Assembly (NCBI GenBank): GCA_028697145.1 | Contig: JAQVFR010000003.1 | Coordinates: forward strand, 3,988-67,987 | Length of the DNA: 64,000 nucleotides | Source: Actinomycetota bacterium | GTDB lineage: Bacteria > Actinomycetota > Geothermincolia > Geothermincolales > RBG-13-55-18 | Direction: 5' to 3' | Shown here: piece by piece, positions 4,620-48,268 of the stretch | Layout: each line of letters starts with the position of its first letter | How positions within the stretch are numbered: the stretch's first letter is position 1 | The notes under the pieces: model-generated | Databases searched by the model: none | What the model was told of the DNA's origin: nothing | Seen by the model: only the letters and a program-made list of their open reading frames with translations | Position numbers and translations under genes: made by a program

Positions 4620-4714
4620 GCGGATGCGCAGCACCTCCACTGATATAATCAAGACGTGTCCAGGCGCGGCGGTCACGCGGCCGCCGCGATACCATCGGGA
4701 TGAAAGGAGTTCGC

Positions 4715-5530: not shown

Positions 5531-5543
5531 CAAGAGAGGCAGC

Positions 5544-7421
5544 ATGGAATACGACATAACCGTGCAGCCCGGCGGGACGCGGTTCACCTGTCCGAGCGAC
5601 GAGGACCTCCTCACCGCACTGCACGGAGCCGGTATAAACGTGGAGAGTGTTTGCGGGGGCATGGGCACCTGCGGCAAGTGCCGTGTCCGCATCCTGGAGG
5701 GAAAGGTGACGGACCCAACCCTCGAGGAGGAGGACCATCTCTCCGAAGAGCAGCTCGACGGGGGCGAGAGGCTGGCCTGCCAGGTCTTCCCGGAGAGCGA
5801 CCTGGTCATCGAGTTGCCCGATTCCTCCCTGGCAACGGGAGAGAGGCTCCAGCTCGCTTGCGAGCTGGAGGTCGGGGGATTCGATCCGGCCGTCCGCTTC
5901 CACGACCTCGAGGTGGAGATACCCGCCTCACCGGGCGACCACGGCTCCGACCTCCTGCGCCTGCGCGATGCCCTGGGGTCATCGCACCCGGGAGTACGGC
6001 TCGAGGGCGCTGACCTGGAGGGATTGCGCACGCTCCCTACCTTGCTGCGCGAGGAAGGAGGGAACGTACGGGCGGTGACCCGCGCCGGCAAGCTGCTCGG
6101 CCTTCTTCCGAGAGCGCGGAACCCCTTGGGGCTCGCGGTGGACCTGGGGAGCACCAAGGTCGCTCTCTTCCTCTGCGACCTCGCGGAAGGGCGCGTGCTC
6201 GCGAGTCATGGTTTCCTCAACCCCCAGATTCGGCACGGGGAGGACATCGTCACCCGCATACAGTACGCGATGGACAGGGATGCGGCCCGCCTGGGTCAGT
6301 TGGTGGTGGAGGCAATAAACGACAACCTGGACGTGATCAGCGCCGACGCTGGTCTCGGCCGTGAAGACATCTTCGAGATGGTGTTGGTGGGGAACACCGC
6401 CATGCACCACCTCTTCCTCGCGCTGCCGGTAACCCAGCTCGCCATGAGCCCCTACCTCCCGGCCACCGACCTTCCCCTGGAGGTCAAGGCCAGGGACCTG
6501 GGTCTGCAACTCAATCCCGCGGCCGTGGTCTACCTGCCGCCGCCCATCGCCGGCTACGTGGGTTCCGACCACCTGGCGGCGGTGGCCGCCGCGCGCCTTT
6601 GGGAACGTCCGGAACCTTGCCTGCTCCTGGACATCGGCACCAACACCGAGGTCGCCCTGCACGCCGGGGGACGCATGCGCACGTGCTCCTGTGCCTCCGG
6701 TCCCGCCTTCGAGGGTGGGGGCCTGAGCCAGGGGATGCGTGCCGGAGACGGGGCAATCGCCAGGGTATCCGTCGATCCCGCTGCGGGCGGGCTCCGGCTC
6801 TCGGTCATCGGGGACGCAACTGCGAAGGGGATCTGCGGTTCGGGCATCCTCTCGGCGCTCGCCGCCATGGTGGAGACGGGAGCCGTTGACACATCCGGCC
6901 GCATGCGGGAGGACGGTCCCGGTGTGGAACGCCGCGGCGAGGAACTCCTTTTTTACCTCGCCCCCCCGGACTCAGGCAATCCCGAAGGGGTTGCGATCAC
7001 CCAGAACGACGTCCGCGAGATACAGAAGGCGAAGGGCGCCATAAGGGCCGGCGTGGACGCCCTCCTTGCCGAGGCGGGCATAGGCCACGGGGACCTGAAG
7101 GAGGTCGTCCTCGCCGGTGCATTCGGCACCTTTATCGACCCTGCCGACGCCCTCGCCATAGCGCTGCTTCCGCCCGTCCCCACGGGCCTGGTCAACCAGG
7201 TGGGAAACGCCGCCGGAGCCGGTGCGCGTGGCATGCTCTTCTCCGCCGGCGCGCGCGCCGAGGCAGAGGAGGTCGCCCGACGCCTGGAATACCTGGAGCT
7301 TTCCGCCTACCCCGGGCTGAGCAAGCTCTTCGCGGCCGGCATGTACCTGTCGCAGGAGACGGTGCGCGGGGCCAAGGGCCGCTTCGGCCTCCAGGCTCCT
7401 CCGGCCTCAGGACCGGACTGA
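5544..7421 (+). CDS. RACo-like reductive activator of corrinoid proteins (N-terminal [2Fe-2S] ferredoxin plus ASKHA/DUF4445 ATPase domain)
   Basis: The N-terminus carries a plant-type ferredoxin motif C-x4-C-x2-C...C (CGGMGTCGKCRV...LACQ). The C-terminal 450 aa is an ASKHA-type fold (DLGSTKVALF..., IGTNTEV). The 625-aa length matches the RACo family. Confidence 0.8.
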   Translation: MEYDITVQPGGTRFTCPSDEDLLTALHGAGINVESVCGGMGTCGKCRVRILEGKVTDPTLEEEDHLSEEQLDGGERLACQVFPESDLVIELPDSSLATGERLQLACELEVGGFDPAVRFHDLEVEIPASPGDHGSDLLRLRDALGSSHPGVRLEGADLEGLRTLPTLLREEGGNVRAVTRAGKLLGLLPRARNPLGLAVDLGSTKVALFLCDLAEGRVLASHGFLNPQIRHGEDIVTRIQYAMDRDAARLGQLVVEAINDNLDVISADAGLGREDIFEMVLVGNTAMHHLFLALPVTQLAMSPYLPATDLPLEVKARDLGLQLNPAAVVYLPPPIAGYVGSDHLAAVAAARLWERPEPCLLLDIGTNTEVALHAGGRMRTCSCASGPAFEGGGLSQGMRAGDGAIARVSVDPAAGGLRLSVIGDATAKGICGSGILSALAAMVETGAVDTSGRMREDGPGVERRGEELLFYLAPPDSGNPEGVAITQNDVREIQKAKGAIRAGVDALLAEAGIGHGDLKEVVLAGAFGTFIDPADALAIALLPPVPTGLVNQVGNAAGAGARGMLFSAGARAEAEEVARRLEYLELSAYPGLSKLFAAGMYLSQETVRGAKGRFGLQAPPASGPD

Positions 7422-7429
7422 TCAGGGCT

Positions 7430-8662
7430 TCATTCGCCGACGATGGCTTCGCCTGCCACCAAGGCCAGGAAGTCGTTGGAGCCGTCCTCGATCATGCCCG
7501 CGCGGGCGTCGCGGAAGAGCTTCTCTATGGCCGATTCCTTGGAAAGCCCGAATCCTCCCATGAGCTGCACCGCCTCACTGGCCACCTCGAAGGCGGCCTG
7601 GGTGCAGAAGATCTTGGAGGCGATGGAGTACTGCGTGAAGGGCGGATTGGTGTTGAAGTTGAACTCCACGACCGCACGGGAGAATGCCCGGCAGGCCTCC
7701 ACCTGCTTGAACATATGGAAGAGCTTGTAGCGCACCAGCTGGTGCTCTATGAGCTTCTTCCCGCCCTGCACCCGCTGCTTGCAATAGGCCAGCGCCTCCT
7801 CGTAACAGGCGCGCGCCACGCCGGTGAAAAATGCCCCCATGCAGGCGTTGGCAGTGCTGACGGTGATGTCGAGGATGGCCTCGTAGCTCTCTTCGTCGAT
7901 GATCATGTACTCCTTGGGCACCCTCACGTTGTCGAAATAGATCTCGCCCTGGTTCAGAGCGCGCTGGCCCAGTTTGTCCCATGGTTTGCCACGGGTCACG
8001 CCGGGCAGGTCAAGCGGGATGACGCAGATGCCGCCGCCGGCCATGCCCATTTCCGGCTCGATGGTGAGATAGGCGCACGCGTGGGTGGCGATGGTGCCGT
8101 TGGAGACCCAGGCGGCCTTGGTGCCGTTGATGACGTAGTCGTCCCCGTCCAGGGTGGCGCGGCAGGCGGTCCTGGCGATCTCCGGGTCGGAGAACTGTTC
8201 GGTGAAAGGCCCAAGAGTATCGGAGCCGTGGTCGGGCTCGGTGATGGCCCAGCAGCCGATGATCTTGGCCTCCTCGTCCTCGCAGAAGGGTATGATGATG
8301 TTATCGATGAGGAACTCGGTGGGCACCATGCTGGCGATGAAGGCCGGGAAACAGGCCACGCCGAAGGCGATCATGAAATCGACGCTCCCCCAGGATATCT
8401 CCTCGAAGAGCATGTGTACCTCCAGGGGCGAAAAGCCTCCTCCGCCGTAGATCTCCGGCAGGAGTATCTTGTGCATGCCTATCTTGTAGCCCTTCCTGAG
8501 CACGTCCCAGTAGATGTCCTCCCTGGCGATGACGTCCTCGGGCGTCAACTTGTCCAGCTCCAGGCTGGCGGGGCGCAGCACCTCTGCAGCGAAGGTGTGC
8601 ACCATATCCCGGTTCATCCTCTGCACCTTGGTGAGGCCTAGGTTGAGGTCAACATAACCCAC
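7430..8662 (-). CDS. Acyl-CoA dehydrogenase family protein
   Basis: ACAD-like middle and C-terminal domains (GCWAITEPDHGSD, GGFG..E..IEKLFRDAR). The ORF extends to 8731; a GTG at 8662 preceded by AAGGGGGA is the preferred start but is uncertain. Confidence 0.75.
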   Translation of the reverse strand: MGYVDLNLGLTKVQRMNRDMVHTFAAEVLRPASLELDKLTPEDVIAREDIYWDVLRKGYKIGMHKILLPEIYGGGGFSPLEVHMLFEEISWGSVDFMIAFGVACFPAFIASMVPTEFLIDNIIIPFCEDEEAKIIGCWAITEPDHGSDTLGPFTEQFSDPEIARTACRATLDGDDYVINGTKAAWVSNGTIATHACAYLTIEPEMGMAGGGICVIPLDLPGVTRGKPWDKLGQRALNQGEIYFDNVRVPKEYMIIDEESYEAILDITVSTANACMGAFFTGVARACYEEALAYCKQRVQGGKKLIEHQLVRYKLFHMFKQVEACRAFSRAVVEFNFNTNPPFTQYSIASKIFCTQAAFEVASEAVQLMGGFGLSKESAIEKLFRDARAGMIEDGSNDFLALVAGEAIVGE

Positions 8663-8802
8663 GACGGTATCCCCCTTTTTTCGGTGCCAGGTCTCGGTTA
8701 ACGAGTTACCTGGCAATGATTCCCATACCATTCGGTTCTTTACGTACCCCGGAACAGCCCCTGTATACTTCCGGGATTAACAACGAACAAGACCTGACCC
8801 AC

Positions 8803-10416
8803 TTACGAGTAGTCCTCCAACTTAAACACGTTATCGGCGCCTTCTGAGAACTCGTCCTTGAGCACGCGGTCGAGATGCTTCTCCGAAGCGCTCTTGGGGA
8901 TCTCGTTCACCACTTGGATGTAAGAGGGCACCGAGTTCGGCTCCAGCCCGTCCTTCGCCGTCTGGAACACCGAGGCGGGATCTATGGCCTTGCCCTCGAA
9001 GGGCGCGACCGCAGCGACCAGGTCGCTCTCGCCCGGCGCCCCCGAGGCGGCGGGTATGCCGTAGACGCAGACCTCGGAGATGTCGGGGTGCTCGCCGATG
9101 ACCTTCTCCACGTAGGTGGGGATGATGAAGTCCCCCGCCCGCCTCAGGCCGCCGCCCTCCTTGCGGTAGTCGAAGTACAACCACCCCTCCTCGTCCTTGT
9201 GCACCATGTCGCCGGTGCGCAACCAGCCCCCGCGGGTCTTGTCCTGCGAGTCCTTCTCCCTGCCGTAGTACTCCACCTCGGGCTTGACGTTCACGGCCCG
9301 CATGAGCAGCTCGCCGGTGACCCCGGGCGACACCTCGTTGTCGTTCTCGTCCACGACGATGGCCTCCTGTATGCCCTCCAGGGGCTTGCCGAAAGAGCCG
9401 ATGGGCCCCACGCCGATGGGATTGTAGGCGAAGCCGCCCTCCACCGCCCCGTACCACTCCAGGATCTTAACCCCGAACCTCTTCTCGAAGGGCTCCCAGA
9501 TGGGCGCGGGAGTGCCGGCGCTGATGACCACCTCCACGGGATTGTCGGCATCGTCGGGCTTGGGAGGCTCGTTGTAGATGCCCGCCATCATCCCGCCCAG
9601 CAGGGAGAAAGTGGTGCATCCGTACTTGCGGCAGATGTCCCAGATGCGGCTCTTGGTAAAACGCTGGCTGATCACCCCCAGTATGCCCATGGACAGCGCG
9701 GGCAGCAGGCTGATGGCCAGGGCGTTGCCGTGGGTGAGGGACAGGCCGGTGTAGATGACCGTCTCCGGCGTGTACTTCCAGATGAGGGTGGGGGCCAGTT
9801 GCGCGAACATGGCGGTGCGGGTGGACTTGATCACCACCCCCTTGGGATTGCCCGTCACCCCCGAGGTATAAATGATGGCCATGGGCAGGTTGGGGTCGTC
9901 TATCCTCCCCTCCACCTCGAAGACGTCCGGCCCGGCCAGTATCTCGTTTATGGTGGGGTACTTTTTCGCGAGGTCGGGGTCGGCGTCCGGCTTGAGGTTG
10001 AGCCAGATCCTCTCGATCCCCGGTATGTTTTTAACCACGCTCTCCACCTCGGGAAGGAGGTCGGCGGTGGTGATGATCCCCTTCGCCTTGCAGTCCTGCA
10101 GCATATACCCGAGCTTCTCCCCCTTGGTGCGCGGGTCGATGGGCACCGCGATCATCCCCAGCAGCGTGGCGGCACCCGTGGTGAAGACGGACTCGGGGTG
10201 GTTGCGCATAAGGGTGGCCACCGCGTCGCCCTTGCGGAGGCCGAATTCTCTGTACGCCCTGGCCATCTTGAAGGTACTGGCGGCTATCTCCCTGTAAGTA
10301 AGGGGTTCATCCGGATAGAGGCCGCCGTTCTCGAAGATCAGCCCCACCTTGTCCGGGTTCTCCTCCAGCCTCATCTCGATCATGTTGGACATCAACGCCG
10401 GGTTCTTCTCTCCCAT
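8803..10416 (-). CDS. AMP-dependent synthetase/ligase (acyl-CoA synthetase)
   Basis: AMP-binding motif YTSGVTGNPKGV plus TGD...DGW. The ATG at 10416 has the RBS GAAAGG 9 nt upstream. The ORF-track start at 10425 is a GTG directly abutting that RBS, so the ATG is more likely. Confidence 0.85.
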   Translation of the reverse strand: MGEKNPALMSNMIEMRLEENPDKVGLIFENGGLYPDEPLTYREIAASTFKMARAYREFGLRKGDAVATLMRNHPESVFTTGAATLLGMIAVPIDPRTKGEKLGYMLQDCKAKGIITTADLLPEVESVVKNIPGIERIWLNLKPDADPDLAKKYPTINEILAGPDVFEVEGRIDDPNLPMAIIYTSGVTGNPKGVVIKSTRTAMFAQLAPTLIWKYTPETVIYTGLSLTHGNALAISLLPALSMGILGVISQRFTKSRIWDICRKYGCTTFSLLGGMMAGIYNEPPKPDDADNPVEVVISAGTPAPIWEPFEKRFGVKILEWYGAVEGGFAYNPIGVGPIGSFGKPLEGIQEAIVVDENDNEVSPGVTGELLMRAVNVKPEVEYYGREKDSQDKTRGGWLRTGDMVHKDEEGWLYFDYRKEGGGLRRAGDFIIPTYVEKVIGEHPDISEVCVYGIPAASGAPGESDLVAAVAPFEGKAIDPASVFQTAKDGLEPNSVPSYIQVVNEIPKSASEKHLDRVLKDEFSEGADNVFKLEDYS

Positions 10417-10454
10417 GCATATCACCCTTTCAATGCGTCATGCGGCTTCCGCCC

Positions 10455-11096
10455 TCATTCCACCGCGCCCATGAAGCGCCGCGTGAAGGAGGGGAACTCC
10501 TCTGCGAACTTCTCCGCCCATTCCTCCTTCGTCCAGTACTTGTGGCGGTCGAAGAAGGGGTTGCGGACCTGGCAGCTCACTGCCACGCCGATGCAGAAAT
10601 CTACGTCCTCGATGAACTCGCATGCCGGGGCGGCCGCCCCGATGGTCTGAAAGACACGGCAGTGCAGCCCCATGTAATGGGCCACGGCCGCAGCCGCGTT
10701 GGCGGCCATGTGCACGTCGTAGACGACGAAATGGCAGCAGGGGCCGTTGATGATCGACTCCACGTCCTCCGCCTTGTTCAGCTCCTCGCAGGTAGCGAAG
10801 CCGCAGGCGCCGCAGTCGTAGTTATAGACGGACTTGCGCCTGGCCCCCAGGAGCAGGGCGCGCGTGTCCTGCTGCGCCAGGTCCACGAAGGCGCGGCCGT
10901 CGCGATTGAAGAGGGGCGAGACCTCGGCCACTCCCTCGCAGTAGCCAGACAGGTCGTCGAACTCCTCGGGCCCGATGGCCGATATCCTGATCTTGGGATG
11001 ACCGAACTTGAGCGCGGTGTTCGCCGCCACCGCCATGAGTTCCAGCGCCCGGTCGATGCCGCTCGCGAGGAGATCGTCACCGTTGATGATAGCCAT
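10455..11096 (-). CDS. Cys-rich ferredoxin-like protein (DUF2148-like, C-x2-C-G-x3-C), paralogue 1
   Basis: 213 aa containing YDCGACGFATCEE, GPCCHFVVYD and an additional AAAPAC Cys. The ATG at 11096 follows a GGGGGGG RBS. It is tightly stacked after its paralogue (stop TAG at about 11112). Confidence 0.55.
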   Translation of the reverse strand: MAIINGDDLLASGIDRALELMAVAANTALKFGHPKIRISAIGPEEFDDLSGYCEGVAEVSPLFNRDGRAFVDLAQQDTRALLLGARRKSVYNYDCGACGFATCEELNKAEDVESIINGPCCHFVVYDVHMAANAAAAVAHYMGLHCRVFQTIGAAAPACEFIEDVDFCIGVAVSCQVRNPFFDRHKYWTKEEWAEKFAEEFPSFTRRFMGAVE

Positions 11097-11111
11097 ATCT
11101 CTCACCCCCCC

Positions 11112-11783
11112 CTAGCAGTAGATGGACCGGAAGGTCGGGAATAGCCGGTGTATGAGGCGGTTCTGCAGGGTCTCGTCGTTGTATTCCGCCCACTCTCTGG
11201 GCAGGTCTGCGAAGGGGCTCTTCTCCGTCACCGCGGCGAGGAAGCCCAGGGCGATGTCGCACTTGTAGGGCAGCAGCCCCATCCTCAGGGCGGCGGCCCC
11301 CACCGACATCTTGATGGCATGGTCGATACCCAGCTGGCGCGCCAGGGTCACGGCTCCGTTCAGGGCATAGGCCATGTTCATGGAGCGCAGCAGGCAGAAC
11401 GGGCCGCGGAAAGCGACCGACGGCGCGTCCGGCACCCTCTCGGCGTCACGCCACATGTCACAGAGCAGGTGCCCGCAGAGGTTGCAGTTGGAGTCCATGG
11501 GATCGTGGCTCGAGCGGCGGTCGGCCATGATCATGACCACGTCCGAGTCGCGCACCTGCACCGCGTCGGAGCGGAAAAATTCCCAGCGCGGGTTGTCGGC
11601 GGCCATCCTGTCGATGGCGATAGCCAAATCCTCTATCTCGTCCCTGGAATCCAGGACGTGGATGCTTATCTCGTCCACCCCGCCCACGCGGGGCGAGGTC
11701 GTCGCCGAGGCCAGGAGGAGCTTGCAGGCAAGCCTGACGCTTTCCTCCCTCCTTTCCTCGTACTCCCTCATCTTTCTTTCCAT
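11112..11783 (-). CDS. Cys-rich ferredoxin-like protein (DUF2148-like), paralogue 2
   Basis: Carries SNCNLCGHLLCDMW, the same C-x2-C-G-x3-C spacing as paralogue 1. The ATG at 11783 follows a GGGAGGGGG RBS. Confidence 0.5.
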   Translation of the reverse strand: MERKMREYEERREESVRLACKLLLASATTSPRVGGVDEISIHVLDSRDEIEDLAIAIDRMAADNPRWEFFRSDAVQVRDSDVVMIMADRRSSHDPMDSNCNLCGHLLCDMWRDAERVPDAPSVAFRGPFCLLRSMNMAYALNGAVTLARQLGIDHAIKMSVGAAALRMGLLPYKCDIALGFLAAVTEKSPFADLPREWAEYNDETLQNRLIHRLFPTFRSIYC

Positions 11784-11867
11784 GATGGGACCCCCTCCCT
11801 GCAAAGGAAACTCTTACGAAAACCTCCGGCATGCGCCTTTCCGCATCGCCGTCTCCCGGCAATAAGG

Positions 11868-12269
11868 CTACATGGGAAGGCCGTATTCCTCGCAGATAGC
11901 TGGGTAGGCCTCGTATGCCGGCTTGAGCAAGGGGAGCATGCCGAGGATCTTGGCCATGGGACCCTTGGCCTTGACCTTCCTCTTGGCCAGGGCCACGGGC
12001 AGCTTCAGGTTCTGCAGCCAGAAATTATGGCAGTCGTCGCCGGCCAGCCACATGATCACGTCGCCCTCGGCGTCGGTGGCTCCCACGGCCAGCCCCGGCT
12101 TGTCCGTGCCGTGCAGCAGCCAGATCTCTCCATCGGGGTCGTTGATGACGAACTGTACATTGATGTTCTCGTCGTTGAACTTCTGGCTGACGCTTTCGTT
12201 TTCGAGCAGTTTCGTGAAGAGCTTGCCAAGGACCTCGTACATGAACTCAGTGTCCTTGAATACCGGCAT
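11868..12269 (-). CDS. SCP2 sterol-carrier/lipid-transfer domain protein
   Basis: 133 aa beginning MPVFKDTEFMYEVLGKLF...WLLHGTDKPG...GDDCHNFWLQNLKLPVALAKRKVKAKGPMAKILGM, which fits the SCP2 fold consensus. The RBS AAAGGGG sits 9 nt upstream of the ATG at 12269. The ORF-track N-terminal extension is R/P-rich and judged non-coding. Confidence 0.7.
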   Translation of the reverse strand: MPVFKDTEFMYEVLGKLFTKLLENESVSQKFNDENINVQFVINDPDGEIWLLHGTDKPGLAVGATDAEGDVIMWLAGDDCHNFWLQNLKLPVALAKRKVKAKGPMAKILGMLPLLKPAYEAYPAICEEYGLPM

Positions 12270-12330
12270 AGCGCACACCCCTTTCACTCGCACCTTTTCC
12301 TCACACGCCCAGACTTGACAGCCATATAAC

Positions 12331-12355
12331 ATACCCAAGTATGATACCAAGGTAT
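12331..12355. promoter_or_regulatory. Operator-like double palindrome, site 1, between the divergent SCP2 operon and tetR
   Basis: Sequence ATACCCAAGTATGATACCAAGGTAT, made of two adjacent 12-mers of the ATACC-NN-GGTAT type. It is 22/25 identical to the site at 17427. A TTGACA hexamer lies at about 12314. Confidence 0.6.
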
Positions 12356-12537
12356 CTAATGCGGTGCCCCTCGTCAAGTGGAATAGTCTTGTATTTTCCG
12401 CGAACGGGGGGGCGGCGGACAAACGCCCGGGGAGCGTAGCGGGCGCGCGGCATCCGCGCAGGTTGTTCGCGCTCCCGGGGCGTGGTAGATTCTGTTGTAG
12501 CGACATGATCGCTTTGAATCGGGCAACGGGGGACAAC

Positions 12538-13146
12538 ATGGCGAAGAAGCGGACTGCGCCCAGGACGGAGAAAGGCATAAACACGCGGCAGGCGATTTTC
12601 GATACCGCCATCGCCCTGTTCGCGAAGCGGGGCTATGACAAGGTCACCATCGACGACATCTGCGACAAGGTCGGGGTCACCAAGGGCGCCTTCTACAACT
12701 ATTTCGAGTCCAAGGACCAGATCATCCTGGAGGAGTTCATGCGCATGGACGATCACTACGTCAAGGTCGCGCATGACATAGCGGACTTAAAGAGCAGCGC
12801 GGAGAAACTGCGCGTGTTCAACCGCGAAGCGGTCAAGCTCATGGCCGACCTCGGAGTCACCATGATGAAGGTGGTCTATCACTCCCAGATCGCTCCGAAC
12901 ATGCGCAGACCCTATCTCATGGACGGCAGGCGCTCCCTCTATAAGATCACGAACGAGCTTATAAAGGAGGGCCAGGAGAAGGGAGAGATCCGCGACGACA
13001 TCGCCAGCGAGGAGATGGCGGTCATGCTCATCAACTGCTTCCGCGGCCAGATCTATCACTGGTGCCTGGCAAACGGCTCCTTCGACCTGGTGGGCACCTG
13101 CGACACGCTTTTCGACCTCATAATGGATCGCCTCACGCCGCGCTAG
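12538..13146 (+). CDS. TetR/AcrR-family transcriptional regulator
   Basis: N-terminal helix-turn-helix AIFDTAIALFAKRGYDKVTIDDICDKVGVTKGAFYNYF. The first ATG after the divergent intergenic region is at 12538. Confidence 0.85.
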   Translation: MAKKRTAPRTEKGINTRQAIFDTAIALFAKRGYDKVTIDDICDKVGVTKGAFYNYFESKDQIILEEFMRMDDHYVKVAHDIADLKSSAEKLRVFNREAVKLMADLGVTMMKVVYHSQIAPNMRRPYLMDGRRSLYKITNELIKEGQEKGEIRDDIASEEMAVMLINCFRGQIYHWCLANGSFDLVGTCDTLFDLIMDRLTPR

Positions 13147-13308
13147 ACGCGTCGTCCGGCCTCGAGGCGGCTTATGCGGTGACCCCGCGATCGTCTCTGC
13201 AGCCCGCTTCGGCGCTCGATGCTCCATGCGGTTAAAGTGGCGGCTCTACCGTGTCGATTAATACCAGAGCAAGCGATAACTTATATTCTGGACAGGGGAG
13301 TCTGCAAC

Positions 13309-14358
13309 ATGAAGCGCTGTTCCGCATGCGGTGTTCCCAGAAAGATAACGTCCACCCACAGATGGCTGGATAACGGCACCATGGTGGAGACGAACAATCC
13401 CGATCACCGTATGATCTTCATAGAAAGCGACAACATAGGCGGCGTCTTCACGCGCATCGAGGAAATCCTCGGCCTCCCCATCGAGCACCTCGTCATCGAG
13501 AGCCAGCGCAGGATGACCTACGATTACGTCCGCAGCCTCATGCCGTCCATGGTGCTGAAGTTATTCCGCATGACCTCCATCAGGCCTCTGGCGAAAAGCG
13601 TGACCGAGCTGGGGAGACTCGTAGGCCTGGGAGACGTGGAACTTCTCTCTATGCGCATCAAGGGAGACGAGGGGGACTACGTGAAGCTGGGAGGGAGAAA
13701 CCTCTTCTACATACCTGCCTATTGCGGCATGGTGGTCGGCTCCATGGAGGCGCTGTCCGGACAGGAATGCAGCATCAGCTACGAGGAGACCTCGCCGGGT
13801 TACTACGAGGTGACCACGTCTGTCACGACCCACCCCGTGGAGCTGAAGGAGAGGTTCAAGCCACGGGAGTATTCGCGCAAAGAAGGGGACCTGCGCTTGC
13901 CGCGGTGCTCCCGCTGTGGGGGGCCGTCGGCGCTCGCGGGCTACGATTTCCTCTACGACGAGGGCATCATCCTGCACCGGGCGAACGCACGGCGCATGCT
14001 CTTCGACGGCCCCGCGGAGTTCGAGGCCATCTTCTCCGAGCTGGAGAAGGAGCTGGGCGAGGATATTCCGCAGGTGATAATCGAAGCTCAGAAGCTCTTC
14101 GTCAAGAGCGGATTCTACGACCTCGGCGAGATCATGGACACCGATGCCTTCAGGGAACACCTGGCGCTGCGCGGTCTTGGCAACCTGAGGGACATGGAGT
14201 ACGGAGAGGACCACCTGCGCCTGCGCATCGAGAACCCGTGCCTTCACCTGCTCCTCGCCGGCCTGGCCCAGGGAGTATTCGAGCTCGCGAGCGACCGCGA
14301 GGCCCGGGTTGCCTGGGAGCTGGCGGGAGACGGCGACCTGACCGTAGAGGCATCCTAG
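13309..14358 (+). CDS. Hypothetical protein with an internally duplicated CxxCG-headed domain (paralogue of 37380..38465)
   Basis: Begins MKRCSACGVPRK...; a second repeat starts at LPRCSRCGGP... Each repeat has a conserved ...ARRMLF.G...FEAI...LGE...VIIEAQ core. The RBS AGGGGAG sits 9 nt upstream. No confident family recall. Confidence 0.6.
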   Translation: MKRCSACGVPRKITSTHRWLDNGTMVETNNPDHRMIFIESDNIGGVFTRIEEILGLPIEHLVIESQRRMTYDYVRSLMPSMVLKLFRMTSIRPLAKSVTELGRLVGLGDVELLSMRIKGDEGDYVKLGGRNLFYIPAYCGMVVGSMEALSGQECSISYEETSPGYYEVTTSVTTHPVELKERFKPREYSRKEGDLRLPRCSRCGGPSALAGYDFLYDEGIILHRANARRMLFDGPAEFEAIFSELEKELGEDIPQVIIEAQKLFVKSGFYDLGEIMDTDAFREHLALRGLGNLRDMEYGEDHLRLRIENPCLHLLLAGLAQGVFELASDREARVAWELAGDGDLTVEAS

Positions 14359-14598
14359 GTACGCCGTCGACCTCCGCACTGCTTGGACCGTTGTCGGCGA
14401 CCGCATTCCGCCGATCCTTTTTACCGCGTCATTAGTATTCGACCGATGTGCCCGTGATCATGCGGACCATGCCCAGCATGGAGCAGGCGGCCAGGGCAAC
14501 AACGGCTTAAGCAGAATGTTCACCCGCGGGTTCTTCGCCTCGAGGCTTTCTACCAGGCCTATTCTCACAACCTCCCTCGAGACCGGGACCGCGAGGGC

Positions 14599-15597
14599 TC
14601 AGGGCATCTCCGTCCAGACCTTGCCGCCCTTGCGCCAGGTGATGGGCGGTAATTCCCTCTCCACCATGGTGTCCGCGTTCACGCGCGGGTAGCCCAGGAC
14701 GATGGCCGAAGCCACCTTGTAGGGCCACTTTATCCCCAGCTCCCTCTTGAGCCAGGGAAGGAAATTGATGCCGATGCTGAACGACAGCCAGCAGGTGACC
14801 AGCCCCAGGGAGTGGGCGGCCAGGACCATGTTGGTGCCGCAGATGCCAACGTCAATCCCCGGGTCGTTCATCCCCCGCTTGTCCATGAGGATCAGGATCA
14901 GGCACGGGGCCCCCAGGAAAACGTCTTTCGGCTTGAGGATGGCCGTGCCTCCCGATATGCCCCTCTGATCCATCAACCCGGGAGCCAACGCGCATAAGAG
15001 GCTGAGTATCCTCCTCGTCAGGGGATTGGTCTTGCCCGTCCAGTAGAAATTGGTGAGCAGCCTCCAGAAGGGGTCCATCTTCTCCGCGATATAGTCCATC
15101 TCCGCCCGGTCATTGATCACGATAAAGGCCCAGGGCTGGCAGTTGCCGTGGGAGGGGGCGAAGCGTCCGGCTTCGACCACGCGGCGCACAAGCACGTCCG
15201 GCACGGGGTCCTTGGAGTAGATGCGGTTGCTGCGGCGTTTGTAGATTACCTCCTCGACCGGCGTCAGCCCCTCGATACCCTCCACCTCCGGTATTTTCGG
15301 GTAACCGTCATCACCATGGTAGGACATGGTCCTGAAGATGCCTTCCTCCACGTTGTAGAAGCCCCGCATGCCGACTGCGCCCTTCTCACAGTGGGAGATA
15401 CAGGCGGAACAGGAAAAACATACCTTCCCATCGATCAGCCGCGCCTTCTTGTCCACGATCTCCAGGCAGCCCATGGCGCAGGCCTTGACGCAGTTCCCGC
15501 AGCCCGTACACTTCTCGGCGTCGATGATGATTTCCGAGAGCGACCACGCCTCCGGGTGAGCGGGCAAGTAAGCCTTCTTGAACTTTGCAGACGCCAT
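14599..15597 (-). CDS. Two-[4Fe-4S] ferredoxin domain fused to a nitroreductase-family domain
   Basis: CTGCGNCVKAC and CFSCSACISHC cluster motifs are followed by a nitroreductase-like fold (RRSNRIY..., HGNCQPW). The ATG at 15597 follows AAGGGGGA; an alternative ATG is at 15612. Confidence 0.75.
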   Translation of the reverse strand: MASAKFKKAYLPAHPEAWSLSEIIIDAEKCTGCGNCVKACAMGCLEIVDKKARLIDGKVCFSCSACISHCEKGAVGMRGFYNVEEGIFRTMSYHGDDGYPKIPEVEGIEGLTPVEEVIYKRRSNRIYSKDPVPDVLVRRVVEAGRFAPSHGNCQPWAFIVINDRAEMDYIAEKMDPFWRLLTNFYWTGKTNPLTRRILSLLCALAPGLMDQRGISGGTAILKPKDVFLGAPCLILILMDKRGMNDPGIDVGICGTNMVLAAHSLGLVTCWLSFSIGINFLPWLKRELGIKWPYKVASAIVLGYPRVNADTMVERELPPITWRKGGKVWTEMP

Positions 15598-15790
15598 CGT
15601 TTCCCCCTTCATCTCATACCTTTTACCATACGTACGCGTGCCAGGCCTGCACTCGCTGCACTCCGTTCAGGTGACTGGCACCGCCGCCTTCGGCGCTGTC
15701 GCTTCCGCGATGCATCCTGTCGAAACCTTTTTCATGCCTCGCGCCCCCCAGCCCGATAACTATGGGGTCGGTCGCCGCGAGTCCGCGAGC

Positions 15791-16077
15791 GGGACCGTTA
15801 CCCCAAGGTTCGGGCCAACCGAAGCCTTCCGTCTGCTGGACCGCCGCCAGCACGGCGGGCAAGGTGCTCGGAGGAGCTTGCGACGACGACCATCCTTGCC
15901 GCCGGGCTCCTGCGGAAGCGGGACCGTTGCCCCAAGGCTCGGGCCAACCGAAGCCTTCCGTCTGCTGGACCGCCGCCAGCACGGCGGGCAAGGTGCTCGG
16001 AGGAGCTTGCGACGACGACCATCCTTGCCGCCGGGCTCCTGCGGAAGCGGGACCGTTGCCCCAAGGCTCGGGCCAAA
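15791..16077. repeat. 129-bp tandem direct repeat, about 2.2 copies, intergenic
   Basis: The unit gggaccgtt(g/a)ccccaagg(c/t)tcgggccaaccgaagccttccgtctgctggaccgccgccagcacggcgggcaaggtgctcggaggagcttgcgacgacgaccatccttgccgccgggctcctgcggaagc starts at about 15791, 15920 and 16049. Copies are near-identical. All six frames give R/P/G-rich low-complexity translations. Confidence 0.85.
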
Positions 16078-16078
16078 A

Positions 16079-17338
16079 TCAACCCACGCGCTCCAATATA
16101 TGGATGCACATGGCCGCTTCGCCGGTGCCAATGAAGCCACCGCCGTTCTCTGACATGGCTATCCTCGCCCCCTCCACCTGGCGCTTGCCGGCCTCGCCCC
16201 GCAACTGCGTCACCAGCTCGACCAGTTGGGCGATACCAGAGGCCCCGATGGGATGTCCACGGCATTCCAGCCCTCCCGAGGTGTTGACGGGGAGCTTGCC
16301 CCCCAGCTTGGTGGCACCGGACTCCGCGAAGGGGCCGCCCTCTCCCTCTCCGCAGAAACCCAGTTCCTCGCACTGCAACAGCTCGCCGAAGGCGGTGGCG
16401 TCGTGCACCTCGGCCATGTCGATGTCCTCGGGGCCCACGCCGGCCACCTCGTATGCCTTCCTGCTCAGGCGTTCCCCGATGAGGTCCATGTCGCCTCCCT
16501 CGGGGATGGCGCCTCCGGTGAGCACCGATGCAAGGATCTTCACCGGACGCGCGCCGGTGAAACGCTTCAAGGCCTTCCCCGAGCAGAGTATCGCCGCCGT
16601 GGCCCCGTCCCCCATGGGCGCGCACATGGCGCGGGTGAGGGGGTAAGCCACCGGCCGGTCATTGAGGACCTCCTCGAGGGTCATATCCATCTGGTACTGG
16701 GCCAGGGGGTTCAGGGATGAATGGTAATGGTTCTTGGCGGCGATTATCGCCAGTTGCCGCTGCGTGGTGCCGTATTTCTCCATGTGCATCCGCGCCGCCG
16801 CGGCATAGAGGTCCATGAAGGGAGAGCGGGCGCCCTCGCCCCCTCCCTTCTTGCCCCCTCCCGTCGCCTCGGCCTCGGCCGCCTTCTTCTTCTCGTCCTC
16901 CATGAAAGCGGCAAGCACGACACGGATGAACTCCACGTCCGCGTTGGACATGAACATCTCGAACATGGCCTGCTTGTTGTCCGGGTTGAACATCTTCTCC
17001 ACCCCGATGGCCAGCGCCACGTCGTAAGCGCCCGCCCTGATGCCGAGGTAGGCGCCGTTCACGGCGCTGGTCGCCCCGGCGCAGGCGTTCTCTACGTTCA
17101 TGGTCGGGATGCCCTCGATGCCAAGCGGGACCAGCGCCACCTGGCCGCGTATGGAATGCTGGCCGGTGACTATCCCCCAGAAGGAATTGGAGAACCACGC
17201 CGCCTCAATATCCTTCTTCTGGACCGGGCAGTCCGCCAGCAGGTTGTCGATGACCTCCGCGGTCATCTGCTTGATGCTCTTCTCCGGGTACTTGCCGAAG
17301 CGGAACATCCCCACGCCGATGATATAGACGTCCTCCAT
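16079..17338 (-). CDS. SCP-x/nonspecific lipid-transfer-protein-type thiolase (thiolase-like superfamily)
   Basis: Begins MEDVYIIGVGMFRFGKY...; has NVENACAGATSA with an active-site Cys, and a C-terminal GGLECRGHPIGASG. The RBS AGGAGG sits 6 nt upstream of the ATG at 17338. Confidence 0.8.
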   Translation of the reverse strand: MEDVYIIGVGMFRFGKYPEKSIKQMTAEVIDNLLADCPVQKKDIEAAWFSNSFWGIVTGQHSIRGQVALVPLGIEGIPTMNVENACAGATSAVNGAYLGIRAGAYDVALAIGVEKMFNPDNKQAMFEMFMSNADVEFIRVVLAAFMEDEKKKAAEAEATGGGKKGGGEGARSPFMDLYAAAARMHMEKYGTTQRQLAIIAAKNHYHSSLNPLAQYQMDMTLEEVLNDRPVAYPLTRAMCAPMGDGATAAILCSGKALKRFTGARPVKILASVLTGGAIPEGGDMDLIGERLSRKAYEVAGVGPEDIDMAEVHDATAFGELLQCEELGFCGEGEGGPFAESGATKLGGKLPVNTSGGLECRGHPIGASGIAQLVELVTQLRGEAGKRQVEGARIAMSENGGGFIGTGEAAMCIHILERVG

Positions 17339-17426
17339 CCCTGCCTCCTTTGTTAAGACTTCGACGTCGCACAGACAGAACAGGCGCCTCAGCAGCACTA
17401 TGCGATCGCCAACCGCAGACAGTTTA

Positions 17427-17451
17427 CATACCCTGGTATGATACCATGGTA
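17427..17451. promoter_or_regulatory. Operator-like double palindrome, site 2, about 90 bp upstream of the thiolase start
   Basis: Sequence ATACCCTGGTATGATACCATGGTAT; its second 12-mer is a perfect palindrome. TTTACA is immediately upstream. Confidence 0.6.
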
Positions 17452-17474
17452 TTTTAATCCCCCGGCAGCGTCAA

Positions 17475-18539
17475 TTACGGCTGCCAGCCTTCCTCGGAGG
17501 CCTCTAGCAGGCGCAGCAAGGCCTCCTGGCTCGTGGTGGGATACATCTGACAATACTTGGCATCTCGCATAAGGCGTTCCATGCCATAGTCGCGCATGTA
17601 ACCGTAGCCACCGTGAATCTGTACACCGTCGATGGCCGACTTGCACGCGCTCTCCGTGCAGCGCAGCCAGGCCACCACGGCTGGCGCGATCCCGCCGTCC
17701 TCGCAGGCCCTCTTGACCAGGGTTCTCCCCTGCTCCACCGCCGCGAGCATCTCGGCCAGGAATATGCGCATCTGCTGGTGCTCTACGATCATCTTCCCCG
17801 CCTGATACCTCTCGCTCGCGTAGGCATAGGCCTTGTGCAGCGCGCTGCGCGAAATCCCGTTGGCTATGGACGCCAGGCCCAGCAGCATCACCCTTTCCAC
17901 CGCCCCTGCCATGTCCCCCCCGGAGATGATGTTGGAAGGCTCGGCGCCGTCGAGACGGACCGACCCGGCCCGGGCAGCCCTCAGCCCCATCTGATACGCC
18001 TCGGGTGTCGTCTCCACGCCGCGAGTGTCGCCGCGCACCGTGAGGGCTTGCGTCCCCCCCGAGCCAGCCGGGATCAGGGTGATGAAGGAGCATTCCTGGA
18101 CGTTGAAGGCGAAGGGCACCCGTCCCTGCACCCTCCCCCCCGAGAACGAAACATCGCCGGGGAAGGCGAGACATGCGGGATAATCGTCGGGGCTCACGCC
18201 GGTGATCAGCGCCTCGGGCTCGCCCATGGCCGACGGCAGCAGGGCGGTATTATGCGCCAGCAGGGAGGCGGCGACTCCCGCCTCCTCCACCGCTATCTCC
18301 TCCAGGGCGACACAGAAGGCGTATTCGTCCAGGCCCCCTCCCCCGCATTCCTCGGGGATGAGGGCCGCCAGCATTCCAATGTCACCCGCTTTGGCGATGA
18401 CCTCCCTGACCCGCCCCCGGGTCGGCTCCAGGTCGAGTTGCTCCGCCTGCTGCGAGAGTTCTTTTTGCGCGAAGGCCGCTGCGGTCTCTCGCAGTATCCT
18501 GTACTCCTGGTCCTCGTGAAATTCCGGCAGCCTGATCAT
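17475..18539 (-). CDS. Acyl-CoA dehydrogenase family protein, short form (354 aa), candidate beta-type subunit
   Basis: Has the ACAD C-terminal helical domain (IHGGYGYMRDYGMERLMRDAK). Its ATG overlaps the upstream TAG (TAGATG), indicating translational coupling to 18540..20015. Confidence 0.7.
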   Translation of the reverse strand: MIRLPEFHEDQEYRILRETAAAFAQKELSQQAEQLDLEPTRGRVREVIAKAGDIGMLAALIPEECGGGGLDEYAFCVALEEIAVEEAGVAASLLAHNTALLPSAMGEPEALITGVSPDDYPACLAFPGDVSFSGGRVQGRVPFAFNVQECSFITLIPAGSGGTQALTVRGDTRGVETTPEAYQMGLRAARAGSVRLDGAEPSNIISGGDMAGAVERVMLLGLASIANGISRSALHKAYAYASERYQAGKMIVEHQQMRIFLAEMLAAVEQGRTLVKRACEDGGIAPAVVAWLRCTESACKSAIDGVQIHGGYGYMRDYGMERLMRDAKYCQMYPTTSQEALLRLLEASEEGWQP

Positions 18540-20015
18540 CTATCTCACCCCTTTCTTGAAGGGACCGGGGATCTCCACCTGCAGCGACTGAGCTATCTCG
18601 GTGTTGTAGACCACCAGACGGTTCAGCTGGTTGGTGCCCTCGTAGATCTGGGTCAGCTTGGCGTCACGGTAGGCCTTCTCGACCCAGGGCCTCTGCGGTG
18701 AATCGTCCGCCCCCATGACCTCCAGCGCCCGCGAAGTCAGAGCCATGGCGTTGTCCGCGCACGTGAACTTGGCCAGGGACGCCTTGGCCAGCATGTCCGT
18801 AACGTCCTCGTCCTTTATGAAGTAGCGGAAGAGCGCGTTGACGAGAGCCTTGCCGTAATAGGAGTTGAGGAAAGCCGAGTAGGGCTTCGATGTGCGTATT
18901 GTCCGCGGAATGAGGAAGGTCGAGAGGAAGATGGGATGGGTGAAGGCGCCGCGGAAGACGGCGTCGCCGCCAAAGCTGTGATTCAGGAAGAGTCCGCGGT
19001 TCTCCTGTATGCTCCCCAGCATATCCGCCAGGGTCATCCTTATGCGGTCCTCGTCTATGGGACGCTTGCCGTTGCGTTTCTCCCTGGTCCAGGCCAGGAA
19101 ATGCTCGAAGGCGCCGCGCGCGATTCCGGTGGCGATGGCCCCCACCGGCCCCCGGGAGGCGGCCATGATGATGAGGATGCCGTTGGCCATGCCGTCCCCC
19201 TCGTAACCGAGCACGTGCGAGTCCGGCACGAAGACGTCCTCGAAGAGCAGTTCGGCCGCGTGGCAGGCCCTTTGCCCCATCTTGAGCTCCACCCTCGGCG
19301 TGGAAAATCCCTCCATATCCCTCTCCACCAGGAAGGTGGTCCAGGTCTGCAGGGGCCGGCTGCGGTCCGTGGCCGCGGTGACCGTGAAATACTTTGCCTC
19401 GCTGCCGCCGGAGATGAAGCACTTTCGGCCGTTGAGGAGGTAGCCTCCCTTGACCTTTTTCGCCTCCATGCCGATCTTGCCCACCTCGAGGAACTCAGGC
19501 TCCTCCACGTCCGTCCCTGCCGACGGCTCGGTGATGCCGTAGGCCATGACCACCGGGTTGCCCTTCTTTTCCTCCTCCACTATCTCATGCAGGACGGTGT
19601 CCCAGTGGGCCATGGCGCCCGAGGCGATGACCGGCGCCACTCCGAGGGAGTGCGCCGCGAGCGCAAGCCCGATGCCGCCGCATGCCGAGCTCAGTTCCTC
19701 GACCGCAAGGGCCATGCCGGTGATCATGTACTTCTCGGCCAAACCCCCCAGCACCTTGGGGATGGCAAGCGAGAAGATGTTGTATCTGCAGGCCTCCCTC
19801 ATCGTTTCCCAGTCGAAGTAATCCGGTTCCCGCTCCATGCGCTGGTCAAGCTGAAGAGCCCGTGGCAGCGCCACCTCCCGTTTGTACTCTGCGCAGCCCT
19901 CGACGATCCCGAGTATCTCGTCGATCCCCTTGCGGTCATGTTCGCGCAAGGCCGCCAGCGCCGGGAAATCGAGGAGAACCTTCTTCCCTCTCTCGCTCAC
20001 CCCTTTAGCGGTCAT
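18540..20015 (-). CDS. Acyl-CoA dehydrogenase family protein (491 aa)
   Basis: Carries AYGITEPSAGTD and a C-terminal YEGTNQLNRLVV ACAD signature. Confidence 0.8.
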   Translation of the reverse strand: MTAKGVSERGKKVLLDFPALAALREHDRKGIDEILGIVEGCAEYKREVALPRALQLDQRMEREPDYFDWETMREACRYNIFSLAIPKVLGGLAEKYMITGMALAVEELSSACGGIGLALAAHSLGVAPVIASGAMAHWDTVLHEIVEEEKKGNPVVMAYGITEPSAGTDVEEPEFLEVGKIGMEAKKVKGGYLLNGRKCFISGGSEAKYFTVTAATDRSRPLQTWTTFLVERDMEGFSTPRVELKMGQRACHAAELLFEDVFVPDSHVLGYEGDGMANGILIIMAASRGPVGAIATGIARGAFEHFLAWTREKRNGKRPIDEDRIRMTLADMLGSIQENRGLFLNHSFGGDAVFRGAFTHPIFLSTFLIPRTIRTSKPYSAFLNSYYGKALVNALFRYFIKDEDVTDMLAKASLAKFTCADNAMALTSRALEVMGADDSPQRPWVEKAYRDAKLTQIYEGTNQLNRLVVYNTEIAQSLQVEIPGPFKKGVR

Positions 20016-20299
20016 ACCTTCCCCCCTTCTCGCATCTCCACGACAGGCACAGCGCTGCGGGTACCCTGCGGATAAGCCAAGACGGCCGTCAAATCATTCC
20101 GGAACGACCTGATGTTTCCGTCACCAGGCGATCGCCGATTCCAAGGGGCTTTCCGCACCCGCACCTGAGACGAAGAAACAGCCTGATCGCACAGGATCAG
20201 GTATCGGGCTTGCGACCAGCCATATGCATGCAGCCAAGACAAAGGTATTGTAAACCATTAATCACTACTGAACAAAGCCATTCGGCTTGTATAGGAATA

Positions 20300-20325
20300 G
20301 AGGCAGGCCCGGTTTGGCCTGCCTC
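20300..20325 (-). terminator. Stem-loop downstream of the enolase-fusion gene (intrinsic-terminator-like)
   Basis: Perfect 10-bp stem gaggcaggcc/ggcctgcctc with a 6-nt loop. On the minus strand it is followed by a U-containing tract (UAUUCCUAUA). Confidence 0.4.
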
Positions 20326-20341
20326 GTACTGGAAGTCTTCC

Positions 20342-22834: not shown

Positions 22835-23096
22835 TTTTTCGCCAACCTCCTCGTTCCGGGACCCGGCTCACCCGGGTCTCATTGCGTTGCGACCGGCATA
22901 CCAATCATCAAACCGGCCCTTTCCTTACACGGACGCCCTTTCCGCAGAAGCGCTGGGCTTTTCGGTGTTTCCTTCAACGGGATGATATTTTACCATCCCC
23001 TGCGCTCAAACTCACGATATACAATTGAGTGGTCTCTCCTCTTTTTCCTTCTCGGACCTGCCTACAAAAGAATTACAGCAACGATCGCGGCGGGGC

Positions 23097-25733: not shown

Positions 25734-26086
25734 GTCGCAACCTCCCTCTCCGTCACCCGATCCGCTGCCAGTAACAAGTCTAGATTGAGTATTACCCCCA
25801 AGTTTGACGGCGTAAACTCGCGCGCGCCCGGAAAATGACGGGGTGTGGGGGCCCGTCCCCTCATAAGGGTAGAATGGGCAACGAGCAGCGCTTGCGATGT
25901 GCAAAGGGGCTGGAATGTATGGACATCACAGTTAGACAAGAGGGAAGCGCGCATATCGCGTTGATAAGAAGCCGAAAGTATTGATCGCCGATGTGGACGA
26001 CGCATTGGACCCCGCGAACGGCTAAGAAGACCACGGGGCTAGACGGATCGCGGGTGCCTCATCCCGGGAAATACGGACCGGTGCGC

Positions 26087-26896: not shown

Positions 26897-26951
26897 GTGA
26901 ACGACCTCCCTCTGCTGCGGATGGAAACGGGGAGCGCGAGGCTCCCAACCC

Positions 26952-30653: not shown

Positions 30654-30687
30654 AAAAAACGGCCTCTTTGTTTCGAAAAGAGGCCGG
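30654..30687 (-). terminator. Rho-independent terminator (minus strand)
   Basis: 9-bp stem cggcctctt/aagaggccg followed on the minus strand by TTTTTT. Confidence 0.6.
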
Positions 30688-48263: not shown

Positions 48264-48268
48264 GGCGA

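Follow-up and report, generated by a model that had tools for sequence, protein, structure and literature searches.

A stretch of 64,000 nucleotides from an Actinomycetota bacterium of the Geothermincolales (assembly GCA_028697145.1, contig JAQVFR010000003.1, positions 3,988 to 67,987; hereafter the window) contains two abutting genes of the acyl-CoA dehydrogenase (ACAD) family, one long and one short, which are our main subject:

18540 to 20015, minus strand: long ACAD subunit of 491 amino acids (aa), with Pfam N-terminal, middle and C-terminal domains; putative catalytic alpha subunit
17475 to 18539, minus strand: short ACAD subunit of 354 aa, with no match to Pfam Acyl-CoA_dh_M; putative non-catalytic beta subunit binding the ADP part of flavin adenine dinucleotide (FAD)

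Genes in the window, where G+C content ranges from 57 to 66%, were chosen by codon-position G+C, the raw lists of open reading frames being crowded with shadow frames, and the 47 called proteins were annotated with Pfam and NCBIfam. Two metagenome-assembled genomes (MAGs), one of them GCA_034678765.1 with its contig JAXDBL010000004.1, carry nearly identical DNA (99.98%; loci L001 and L002 among the compared loci in other genomes and assemblies, which are numbered L001-L014 and L093-L097), and identical copies of window proteins are present in several metagenome assemblies. The pair lies where the initial annotation of this DNA had placed it, and the TAGATG junction that it reported is indeed there, reading ...GTGAGA TAG ATG ATC..., with the long-gene stop codon immediately before the short-gene start.

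We read the motifs from an alignment of the six window ACADs. The long subunit retains GITEPSAGTD on the flavin side, CFISGG, and QIYEGTNQ with the catalytic Glu, while its GGYGY motif is degenerate, reading EVMGADDSP where other ACADs read (Q/E)xMGGYGY; it also carries about 53 inserted residues. The short subunit shows the reverse pattern: TEPxxGSD is absent, the middle domain is about 30 residues shorter, and the catalytic position reads QMYPTTSQ, in which YEG has become YPT and Pro334 stands for Glu, whereas SERYQAGK and VQIHGGYGY are retained. The catalytic Glu is present in one subunit only, and the loss of motifs is complementary, a pattern that would be compatible with one FAD per heterodimer. 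The two subunits are only 22.5% identical, and therefore do not stem from a recent duplication. Both the heteromer-type signature and the suspected lack of FAD-binding residues in the short ACAD, put forward in the initial annotation, are borne out, the missing residues being those on the flavin side.

In the structure of medium-chain acyl-CoA dehydrogenase (MCAD), the Arg and the QxxGGxG(Y/F) helix of one chain bind the ADP of an FAD whose flavin lies in the partner chain; read in this way, only one of the two sites in a long-short dimer would be functional. Steroid alpha2beta2 ACADs have been described along the same lines (PMC8399759). The two genes thus probably encode one obligately heteromeric, FAD-dependent ACAD, placed in a TetR-controlled acyl-CoA module. 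In such an enzyme the catalytic glutamate (YEG) and the pocket for the isoalloxazine (TEPSAGTD, CFISGG) would both come from the long subunit, whose bound FAD would have its ADP part held by the conserved Arg and the Q-x-H-G-G-Y-G-Y stretch of the short subunit; the reciprocal site appears to be destroyed on both sides, so that each heterodimer would have one FAD and one active site. The pair, by its gene arrangement translationally coupled, would act within a TetR-controlled module of beta-oxidation type on a bulky or 2-branched carboxylic acid, with an Fe-S flavoprotein (Fer4-nitroreductase) as the candidate electron partner.

The motif complementarity is not peculiar to the window genome. 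The same pattern was found in seven paired loci, down to 33% identity for the short and 42% for the long subunit, and the junction is abutting or overlapping in six of the seven (TAGATG, ATGA, GTGA, TGAATG or TGAGATG); the long gene precedes the short one in L001-L003, L007-L014, L093, L096 and L097. Within the short family (22 diverse sequences), R244, Y245, Q246, V306, Q307, H309, G310-Y314 and P334 are invariant. In the long family (22 sequences) TEPxAGTD is invariant and YEG nearly so, the insert is kept, and GGYGY is lost in every sequence. At all distances compared, divergence is faster in the short subunit, its identities of 47, 49, 39, 37, 35 and 33% corresponding to 69, 64, 49, 50, 50 and 42% for the long one. 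Uncultured Actinomycetota, 'Candidatus Geothermincolia' and 'Ca. Solincola' among them, are the only source of the short family, which numbers about 90 clusters with lengths of 340-366 aa; its edge is sharp, with scores falling from 161 to 131 bits where ordinary 380-aa ACADs begin. A contig search with the short-subunit alignment, which used generic ACAD peptide patterns, gave two true loci (L013 and L014) and 78 ordinary ACADs among the matches listed. The long family is larger, a search from its distant member P0237 yielding 761 proteins at E <= 1e-40, of which the named ones come mostly from Solirubrobacterales and Thermoleophilia MAGs, and one pair locus of this type adjoins narGHJI. The family thus extends beyond strict anaerobes, and the "anaerobic variant" of catabolism proposed in the initial annotation does not hold as such.

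Several points weigh against a single heteromeric enzyme in a catabolic module. The heteromer is deduced from sequence, and in assigning the R and QxxGGxGY elements to the neighbor's FAD we presume that the MCAD structure applies. Of the relatives, L095 has no short gene beside its long gene, and L094 has a broken one. Neither the window nor the closest loci contain a 3-hydroxyacyl-CoA dehydrogenase, so that the set for beta-oxidation is not complete. The thiolase next to the pair is without the cysteine of the HDCF motif, and BbsB, which comes nearest to it in motifs, acts together with a DUF35 protein, of which none was found in the window. The part given to the Fer4-nitroreductase derives from synteny, and its gene is absent from the more distant subclades.

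The relation of the pair to FadE26-34, IpdE and PimCD was judged by HMM, PDB and Foldseek scores in place of an explicit tree. AlphaFold2 models, made as monomers, are confident ACAD folds for both subunits. The long subunit (pLDDT 90.9) has its insert folded into four short helices at residues 361-399 and carries a helical extension at the N terminus, while in the short subunit (pLDDT 87.0) the beta domain is still there, shortened, with eight strands. The long subunit best matches Bcd of the Bcd-Etf complex in a PDB sequence search (5ol2_C, 144 bits), followed by cyclohex-1-ene-1-carboxyl-CoA dehydrogenase and MCAD; the short subunit best matches 4n5f (121.9 bits), the sole steroid-type subunit listed being 6wy8_A with 36.8 bits. 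Foldseek against the PDB gave only canonical ACADs among the top 50 for both models, and the solved alpha2beta2 steroid ACADs (4x28, 6wy8/9) are absent from the top 50-60 matches of either subunit. TM-scores of the long model with the nearest solved folds are 0.85-0.90 when normalized to the target and 0.67-0.71 when normalized to the query, about 30% of the model being unmatched, and no solved ACAD matches its N-terminal extension and helical insert. The NCBIfam model of IpdE2 scores 52.6 bits on the short subunit versus 63.5 on an ordinary ACAD of the window (gene 46427), and the PimC and PimD models, which reach 124 and 91 bits on that same canonical ACAD, do not exceed 15.5 bits on the pair.

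Alpha2beta2 ACADs are defined by adjacent genes, one catalytic Glu per heterodimer and one FAD at the dimer interface, and are best known from steroid catabolism (PMC8399759). The steroid enzymes (ChsE1-ChsE2, ChsE4-ChsE5 and IpdE1-IpdE2 of M. tuberculosis, and the Pseudomonas Scd pairs) have in common with the window pair adjacent, co-transcribed genes and a Glu in one subunit, and the pair also resembles them in a motif pattern that would imply one FAD per heterodimer; it differs in having no specific sequence or fold affinity to them and no steroid genes around it. Pimeloyl-CoA dehydrogenase PimCD of R. palustris is likewise a two-gene ACAD with a large and a small subunit, probably a heterotetramer, and acts on a non-steroid substrate, but its subunits measure 395 and 378 aa. 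The nearest enzymes in sequence and fold are canonical homotetrameric ACADs, such as Bcd (5ol2_C), cyclohex-1-ene-1-carboxyl-CoA dehydrogenase (7p98), AcrC and CarC, and the catalytic Glu of the long subunit occupies the YEG position, as in MCAD and Bcd; however, canonical ACADs are complete in each chain, whereas the window subunits each keep half of the FAD-binding and catalytic equipment. By all three kinds of score both subunits are nearer to canonical ACADs than to the ChsE, IpdE and PimCD families, so the link to actinobacterial sterol and bile-acid ACADs drawn in the initial annotation is not upheld. The pair shares the predicted alpha2beta2 architecture without family-level affinity to the steroid or PimCD enzymes: it is a distinct lineage of a known heteromeric design, and we found no specific link between it and the breakdown of steroids. 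As for the substrate, the best matches include, with weak similarity, cyclohexane(ene)carboxyl-CoA dehydrogenases, which gives no more than a lead.

Until now, a single active site per dimer in heteromeric ACADs has mostly been regarded as a mark of steroid catabolism, to which dicarboxylate enzymes of the PimCD type probably add a second use. A separate lineage would mean that the design has arisen repeatedly and does not by itself indicate that steroids are used. This one takes in the short-subunit clusters from anaerobic Actinomycetota and, in Thermoleophilia/Solirubrobacterales, several hundred relatives of the long subunit, none of them annotated more precisely than as a generic ACAD; this should be borne in mind in annotation pipelines and whenever "steroid degradation potential" is claimed from a genome. 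A bolder version, which we consider unlikely, would have the one-FAD heterodimeric ACAD arise independently and convergently from Bcd/MCAD-like ancestors in deep-branching Actinomycetota, with the anaerobic subclade exchanging electrons with a dedicated flavoprotein of 2x[4Fe-4S]/nitroreductase fold and not with electron-transferring flavoprotein (ETF); if true, acyl-CoA oxidation or enoyl-CoA reduction would there proceed by a route that does not need ETF.

The genes for acyl-CoA metabolism in the window had been described as a single toolkit, but they fall into at least four separate units, with housekeeping genes and surface-protein genes under c-di-GMP riboswitches between them:

7430 to 12242, minus strand: SCP2-like gene, two DUF2148 genes, ligase and ACAD
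12538 to 14358, plus strand: TetR gene and a gene for a 349-aa protein without family match
14599 to 20015, minus strand: ACAD pair, thiolase and Fer4-nitroreductase, with more genes upstream up to 28431
34383 to 42516, minus strand: TetR, AbfD-like and ligase genes, a paralogue of the gene at 13309 to 14358, and two ACADs
45706 to 48706: MaoC gene, ACAD and hot-dog pair, amid ppx, DUF501, sigma factor and ftsB-like housekeeping genes

Those nearest to the ACAD pair, together with the crotonase upstream, are the following:

8803 to 10416, minus strand: AMP-forming acyl-CoA ligase (AMP-binding and AMP-binding_C)
10455 to 11096, minus strand: DUF2148 ferredoxin-domain protein, second copy (PF09918, E = 7.2e-18)
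11112 to 11783, minus strand: DUF2148 ferredoxin-domain protein (PF09918, E = 7.8e-15)
11868 to 12242, minus strand: small SCP2-like protein, marginal (PF02036, 20.8 bits against a cutoff of 21.3, E = 5e-4)
12538 to 13146, plus strand: TetR regulator (TetR_N and TetR_C_24), divergent from the SCP2-like/DUF2148/ligase/ACAD unit
14599 to 15597, minus strand: 2x[4Fe-4S] ferredoxin domain fused to a nitroreductase-fold flavoprotein (Pfam Fer4 families and Nitroreductase), candidate redox partner
16079 to 17338, minus strand: thiolase of SCP2-thiolase/BbsB/archaeal type, by PDB scores and motifs
26087 to 26896, minus strand: crotonase-family enoyl-CoA hydratase (ECH_1, E = 3e-51)

The individual genes had been named correctly for the most part: the crotonase, the two AMP-forming ligases (the second at 38726-40453), the two TetR genes (the second at 41932-42516), the SCP2/"Thiolase_C_1"-type thiolase, RACo (5544-7421), the Fer4-nitroreductase and the AbfD-like gene are all present, and the Cys-rich ferredoxin-like proteins are the two DUF2148 proteins. 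The proposed SCP2 carrier is there as a gene, its assignment to SCP2 falling just short of the Pfam cutoff. Among the 47 called proteins there is no 3-hydroxyacyl-CoA dehydrogenase, ETF subunit or DUF35 protein. Scans of positions 7000-26999 for promoters and terminators stayed at chance level (5 found versus 3.8 expected, and 12 versus 10.7).

Comparison with L013, L007 and L096 shows that a set consisting of TetR, acyl-CoA ligase, crotonase, ACAD pair, thiolase and Fer4-nitroreductase recurs in the subclade of the window. TetR is conserved at 79% in L013 and 59% in L007, the ligase at 75% in L007 and 66% in L013, and the crotonase in L013, L007 and L011. The thiolase gene follows the pair in L096 and L013 and is nearby in L007, and with 74-86% identity it is better conserved than either ACAD subunit. 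In L096, the long, short, thiolase and Fer4-nitroreductase genes are 1-13 bp apart. The DUF2148 genes, SCP2-like gene, enolase-core protein and Mo-oxidoreductase are limited to the window species or its closest relatives, and in other subclades the partners are short-chain dehydrogenases/reductases (SDRs), SCP2, an esterase, or a PF06314 gene (ADC family) directly upstream. The latter, coding for a member of the acetoacetate-decarboxylase family, lies immediately upstream of the long ACAD gene in the Solirubrobacterales/Thermoleophilia-type contigs L093, L094, L095 and L097, and downstream of the pair in L097 come two SDR genes, one TetR gene and one SCP2 gene.

The Fer4-nitroreductase is kept downstream of the pair or of the thiolase in L001/2, L013, L007/8 and L096, at 58-68% identity, and has no specific relative in the PDB; as a conserved Fe-S flavoprotein neighbor, it offers a testable lead on how ACADs are re-oxidized in anaerobic actinobacteria. 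It also bears on the possibility that the heteromer runs reductively, as an enoyl-CoA reductase supplied with low-potential electrons through the Fer4-nitroreductase, in a fermentative sink or in chain elongation, in the manner of AcrC, CarC or Bcd with Etf. AcrC acryloyl-CoA reductase, Bcd of the Bcd-Etf complex and CarC are indeed among the best NCBIfam and PDB neighbors, the window has no ETF gene, and acetogen-type genes (RACo, a pterin methyltransferase) and AbfD are nearby. However, the acyl-CoA ligases and the FadR-like control by TetR look catabolic, all scores are far under the family cutoffs, catalytic direction cannot be read from sequence, and relatives are found in nitrate-respiring Solirubrobacterales, so that we regard reductive operation as rather improbable.

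The thiolase also figures in another proposal, in which the locus serves anaerobic actinobacterial degradation of sterol, bile-acid or isoprenoid side chains and the ACAD pair, hot-dog pair and thiolase stand in for ChsE, ChsH1/H2 and Ltp2. In SCP2-thiolases the Cys of the HDCF motif is the proton donor, while Ltp2/Sal aldolases have no nucleophilic Cys, read YDHF or YDCY, and have a DUF35 partner (PMC12329534). An alignment with 6hsj shows that the window thiolase retains both the nucleophilic Cys (NVENACAG) and GHP, and it is therefore a thiolase and not an aldolase of Ltp2/Sal type. Its PDB scores are 208.6 bits for SCP2-thiolase type 1 (6hsj), 195.4 for BbsB (7pxp_C) and 195 for the archaeal enzyme (6esq), compared with 78 for Ltp2 (6ok1). 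At the HDCF motif it reads HDAT, so that it shares the Cys and GHP, but not the HDCF Cys, with SCP2-thiolase type 1 (HDCF in zebrafish 6hsj, as in archaeal 6esq). The HDA part resembles the HDAF of BbsB, and the benzoylsuccinyl-CoA thiolase BbsAB has the nucleophilic Cys and GHP as well; it differs in that the window has no BbsA-like DUF35 partner and in that the BbsB model gives 212.6 bits against a cutoff of 750. Unlike BbsB and the SCP2-thiolases, the window protein has a Lys/Gly-rich insert of about 58 aa. The type of thiolase and the heteromeric ACAD design suggest a bulky or 2-branched acyl-CoA as the substrate.

The second element of that proposal is a tandem of small hot-dog genes, which was correctly located:

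47838 to 48706, minus strand: hot-dog pair, HadB-like (47838-48263) and HadA/UPF0336-like (48269-48706), from PDB and NCBIfam matches

Pfam assigns the first to MaoC_dehydratas and the second to FAS1_DH_region/MFE-2 hydratase N. The two proteins, of 141 and 145 aa, consist of the hot-dog domain only; the HadB-like one matches 4rlj_B and 5zy8_B, and the UPF0336 HadA/C/D-like one matches 8pwz_A, 4rv2_A and 5zy8_A. They resemble the mycobacterial (3R)-hydroxyacyl-ACP dehydratases HadAB/HadBC, but the HadB-like protein stays below the HadB equivalog cutoff (NF010246, 74.5 bits versus 203), and the host is not known to make mycolic acids. ChsH1 and ChsH2 are not among the matches of the pair, neither subunit has a DUF35 domain, and the genes lie 28 kb from the ACAD pair amid housekeeping genes, so that the comparison with ChsH1/H2 fails.

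Sterol or isoprenoid side-chain degradation would still be in keeping with the heteromer signature of the pair, the fact that heteromeric ACADs are best known from steroid catabolism, the SCP2-type thiolase, the marginal SCP2-like gene together with the unambiguous SCP2 genes close to the pair in L009, L011 and L097, and a CrtISO/CrtI-family fusion enzyme encoded upstream. Against these stand the lack of specific similarity of the pair to ChsE, IpdE or PimCD, the HadAB-like nature of the hot-dog pair, the nucleophilic Cys and HDAT motif of the thiolase, and the use of heteromeric ACADs for dicarboxylates, as in PimCD. Moreover, the 64-kb window contains no steroid-ring, KstD-type, C25-dehydrogenase-type or ring-cleavage genes, and none of the 47 called proteins reaches the cutoff of a steroid-specific model: the steroid-named NCBIfam models with matches all score far below theirs (CasG 271 versus 750; CasI, the steroid-22-oyl-CoA synthetase, 160 versus 900 on the ligase at 8803-10416; EchA19 162 versus 400 on the crotonase), the latter two proteins reaching no other NCBIfam cutoff either. 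We therefore hold a steroid or isoprenoid pathway to be improbable. Equally doubtful is an ordinary fatty- or amino-acid beta-oxidation island with a normal homotetramer of the long subunit and the short ACAD as a decaying, roleless paralogue, which would suit the resemblance of both subunits to ordinary short-/medium-chain ACADs, the solitary long gene in L095 and the faster evolution of the short subunit, but not the size (about 90 clusters), uniform length and invariant FAD-ADP motifs of the short family, the translational coupling maintained down to 33% identity, or the loss of GGYGY from every long-family member, which would leave a homomer without that part of its own FAD site.

The heteromeric pair is accompanied in the window by four further ACADs. 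A Pfam and tblastn sweep with all ACADs places the six genes at 7430, 17475, 18540, 34383, 35749 and 46427, and the previously claimed total of seven is reached only if the AbfD/HpaB-fold gene is counted.

7430 to 8731, minus strand: complete ACAD of 433 aa, with three Pfam domains and the motifs TEPDHGSD, IEDG and GGFG
34383 to 35675 and 35749 to 37044, minus strand: tandem complete ACADs, 57% identical, both with TEP, (W)EG and G(S/N)YGY kept
40435 to 41889, minus strand: homologue of AbfD-type 4-hydroxybutyryl-CoA dehydratase/vinylacetyl-CoA isomerase (377 bits to 1u8v, AbfD of C. aminobutyricum)

The tandem paralogues are present as first reported, and we considered them as a second heteromer; both keep all motifs and show no complementarity, so that we rejected this. 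The canonical 384-aa ACAD at 46427-47581 (plus strand) reads IGGGT where the MCAD type has IYEGT, and has a Glu in ELQGER, which suggests that its catalytic base may occupy the position seen in enzymes of the isovaleryl-CoA/long-chain acyl-CoA dehydrogenase type.

The oxygen-sensitive context noted earlier is real. The AbfD-like protein conserves, in the alignment with 1u8v, all four [4Fe-4S] ligand positions of AbfD, C99, C103, H292 and C299 (1u8v numbering); RACo and a pterin-binding methyltransferase are encoded at 4700-7421, and Fe-S proteins are frequent in the window. These features support the view of the window organism as an apparent anaerobe.

Among the genes upstream of the pair, the nearest (20342-22834, minus strand) codes for a protein of 805-830 aa in which only an enolase-barrel core is recognizable (approximately enolase residues 190-385, 92-102 bits); the large regions on its N- and C-terminal sides have no annotation. 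L014 has this gene, and L013 lacks it. Further upstream is a gene (23097-25904, minus strand) in which a CrtISO/CrtI-family FAD enzyme (155 bits to carotenoid isomerase) is fused to a PaaE/FNR-like FAD-NAD-[2Fe-2S] reductase module; both L013 and L014 keep this unusual fusion, which might act as a self-sufficient desaturase or saturase. Downstream of the pair, a 129-bp tandem repeat (15788-16076) separates the thiolase and Fer4-nitroreductase genes, with 2.2 copies in the window and 1.2 copies in L001 and L002, reflecting either copy-number variation or an assembly difference; the corresponding spacer in L096 is 13 bp. The tandem DUF2148 genes (10455-11783, minus strand) share their unit with the SCP2-like gene, the ligase and the complete ACAD, and in L096 an ACAD is flanked by a flavodoxin gene instead; a literature search on DUF2148 and on Geothermincolia metabolism gave no usable report.

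Two proteins with RCSxCG half-repeats belong to a small family of their own, with 409 representative clusters among 1.84 billion:

13309 to 14358, plus strand: 349-aa protein with two RCSxCG half-repeats and no Pfam, NCBIfam or PDB match
37380 to 38480, minus strand: paralogue of about 350 aa, 29% identical, also with two RCSxCG half-repeats

Each copy adjoins a module with TetR, acyl-CoA ligase and ACAD genes. We considered these proteins as DUF35-like partners of the thiolase and rejected them, as the zf-ChsH2 match has E = 0.6, each repeat has one CxxC and not a C4 ribbon, and no PDB relative was found.

Finally, a 1.2-kb divergent spacer of lower G+C content contains two c-di-GMP-II riboswitch aptamers, at 30673-30757 (minus strand) and 31486-31569 (plus strand), scoring 61.3 bits and, for a GAG variant, 47.9 bits, each upstream of a gene for a large surface protein with SdrD_B/SpaA repeats (28509-30608, minus strand, and 31848-34289, plus strand). 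A tRNA gene (43247-43328, minus strand) occupies the 972-bp gap between a TetR gene and a response-regulator gene.

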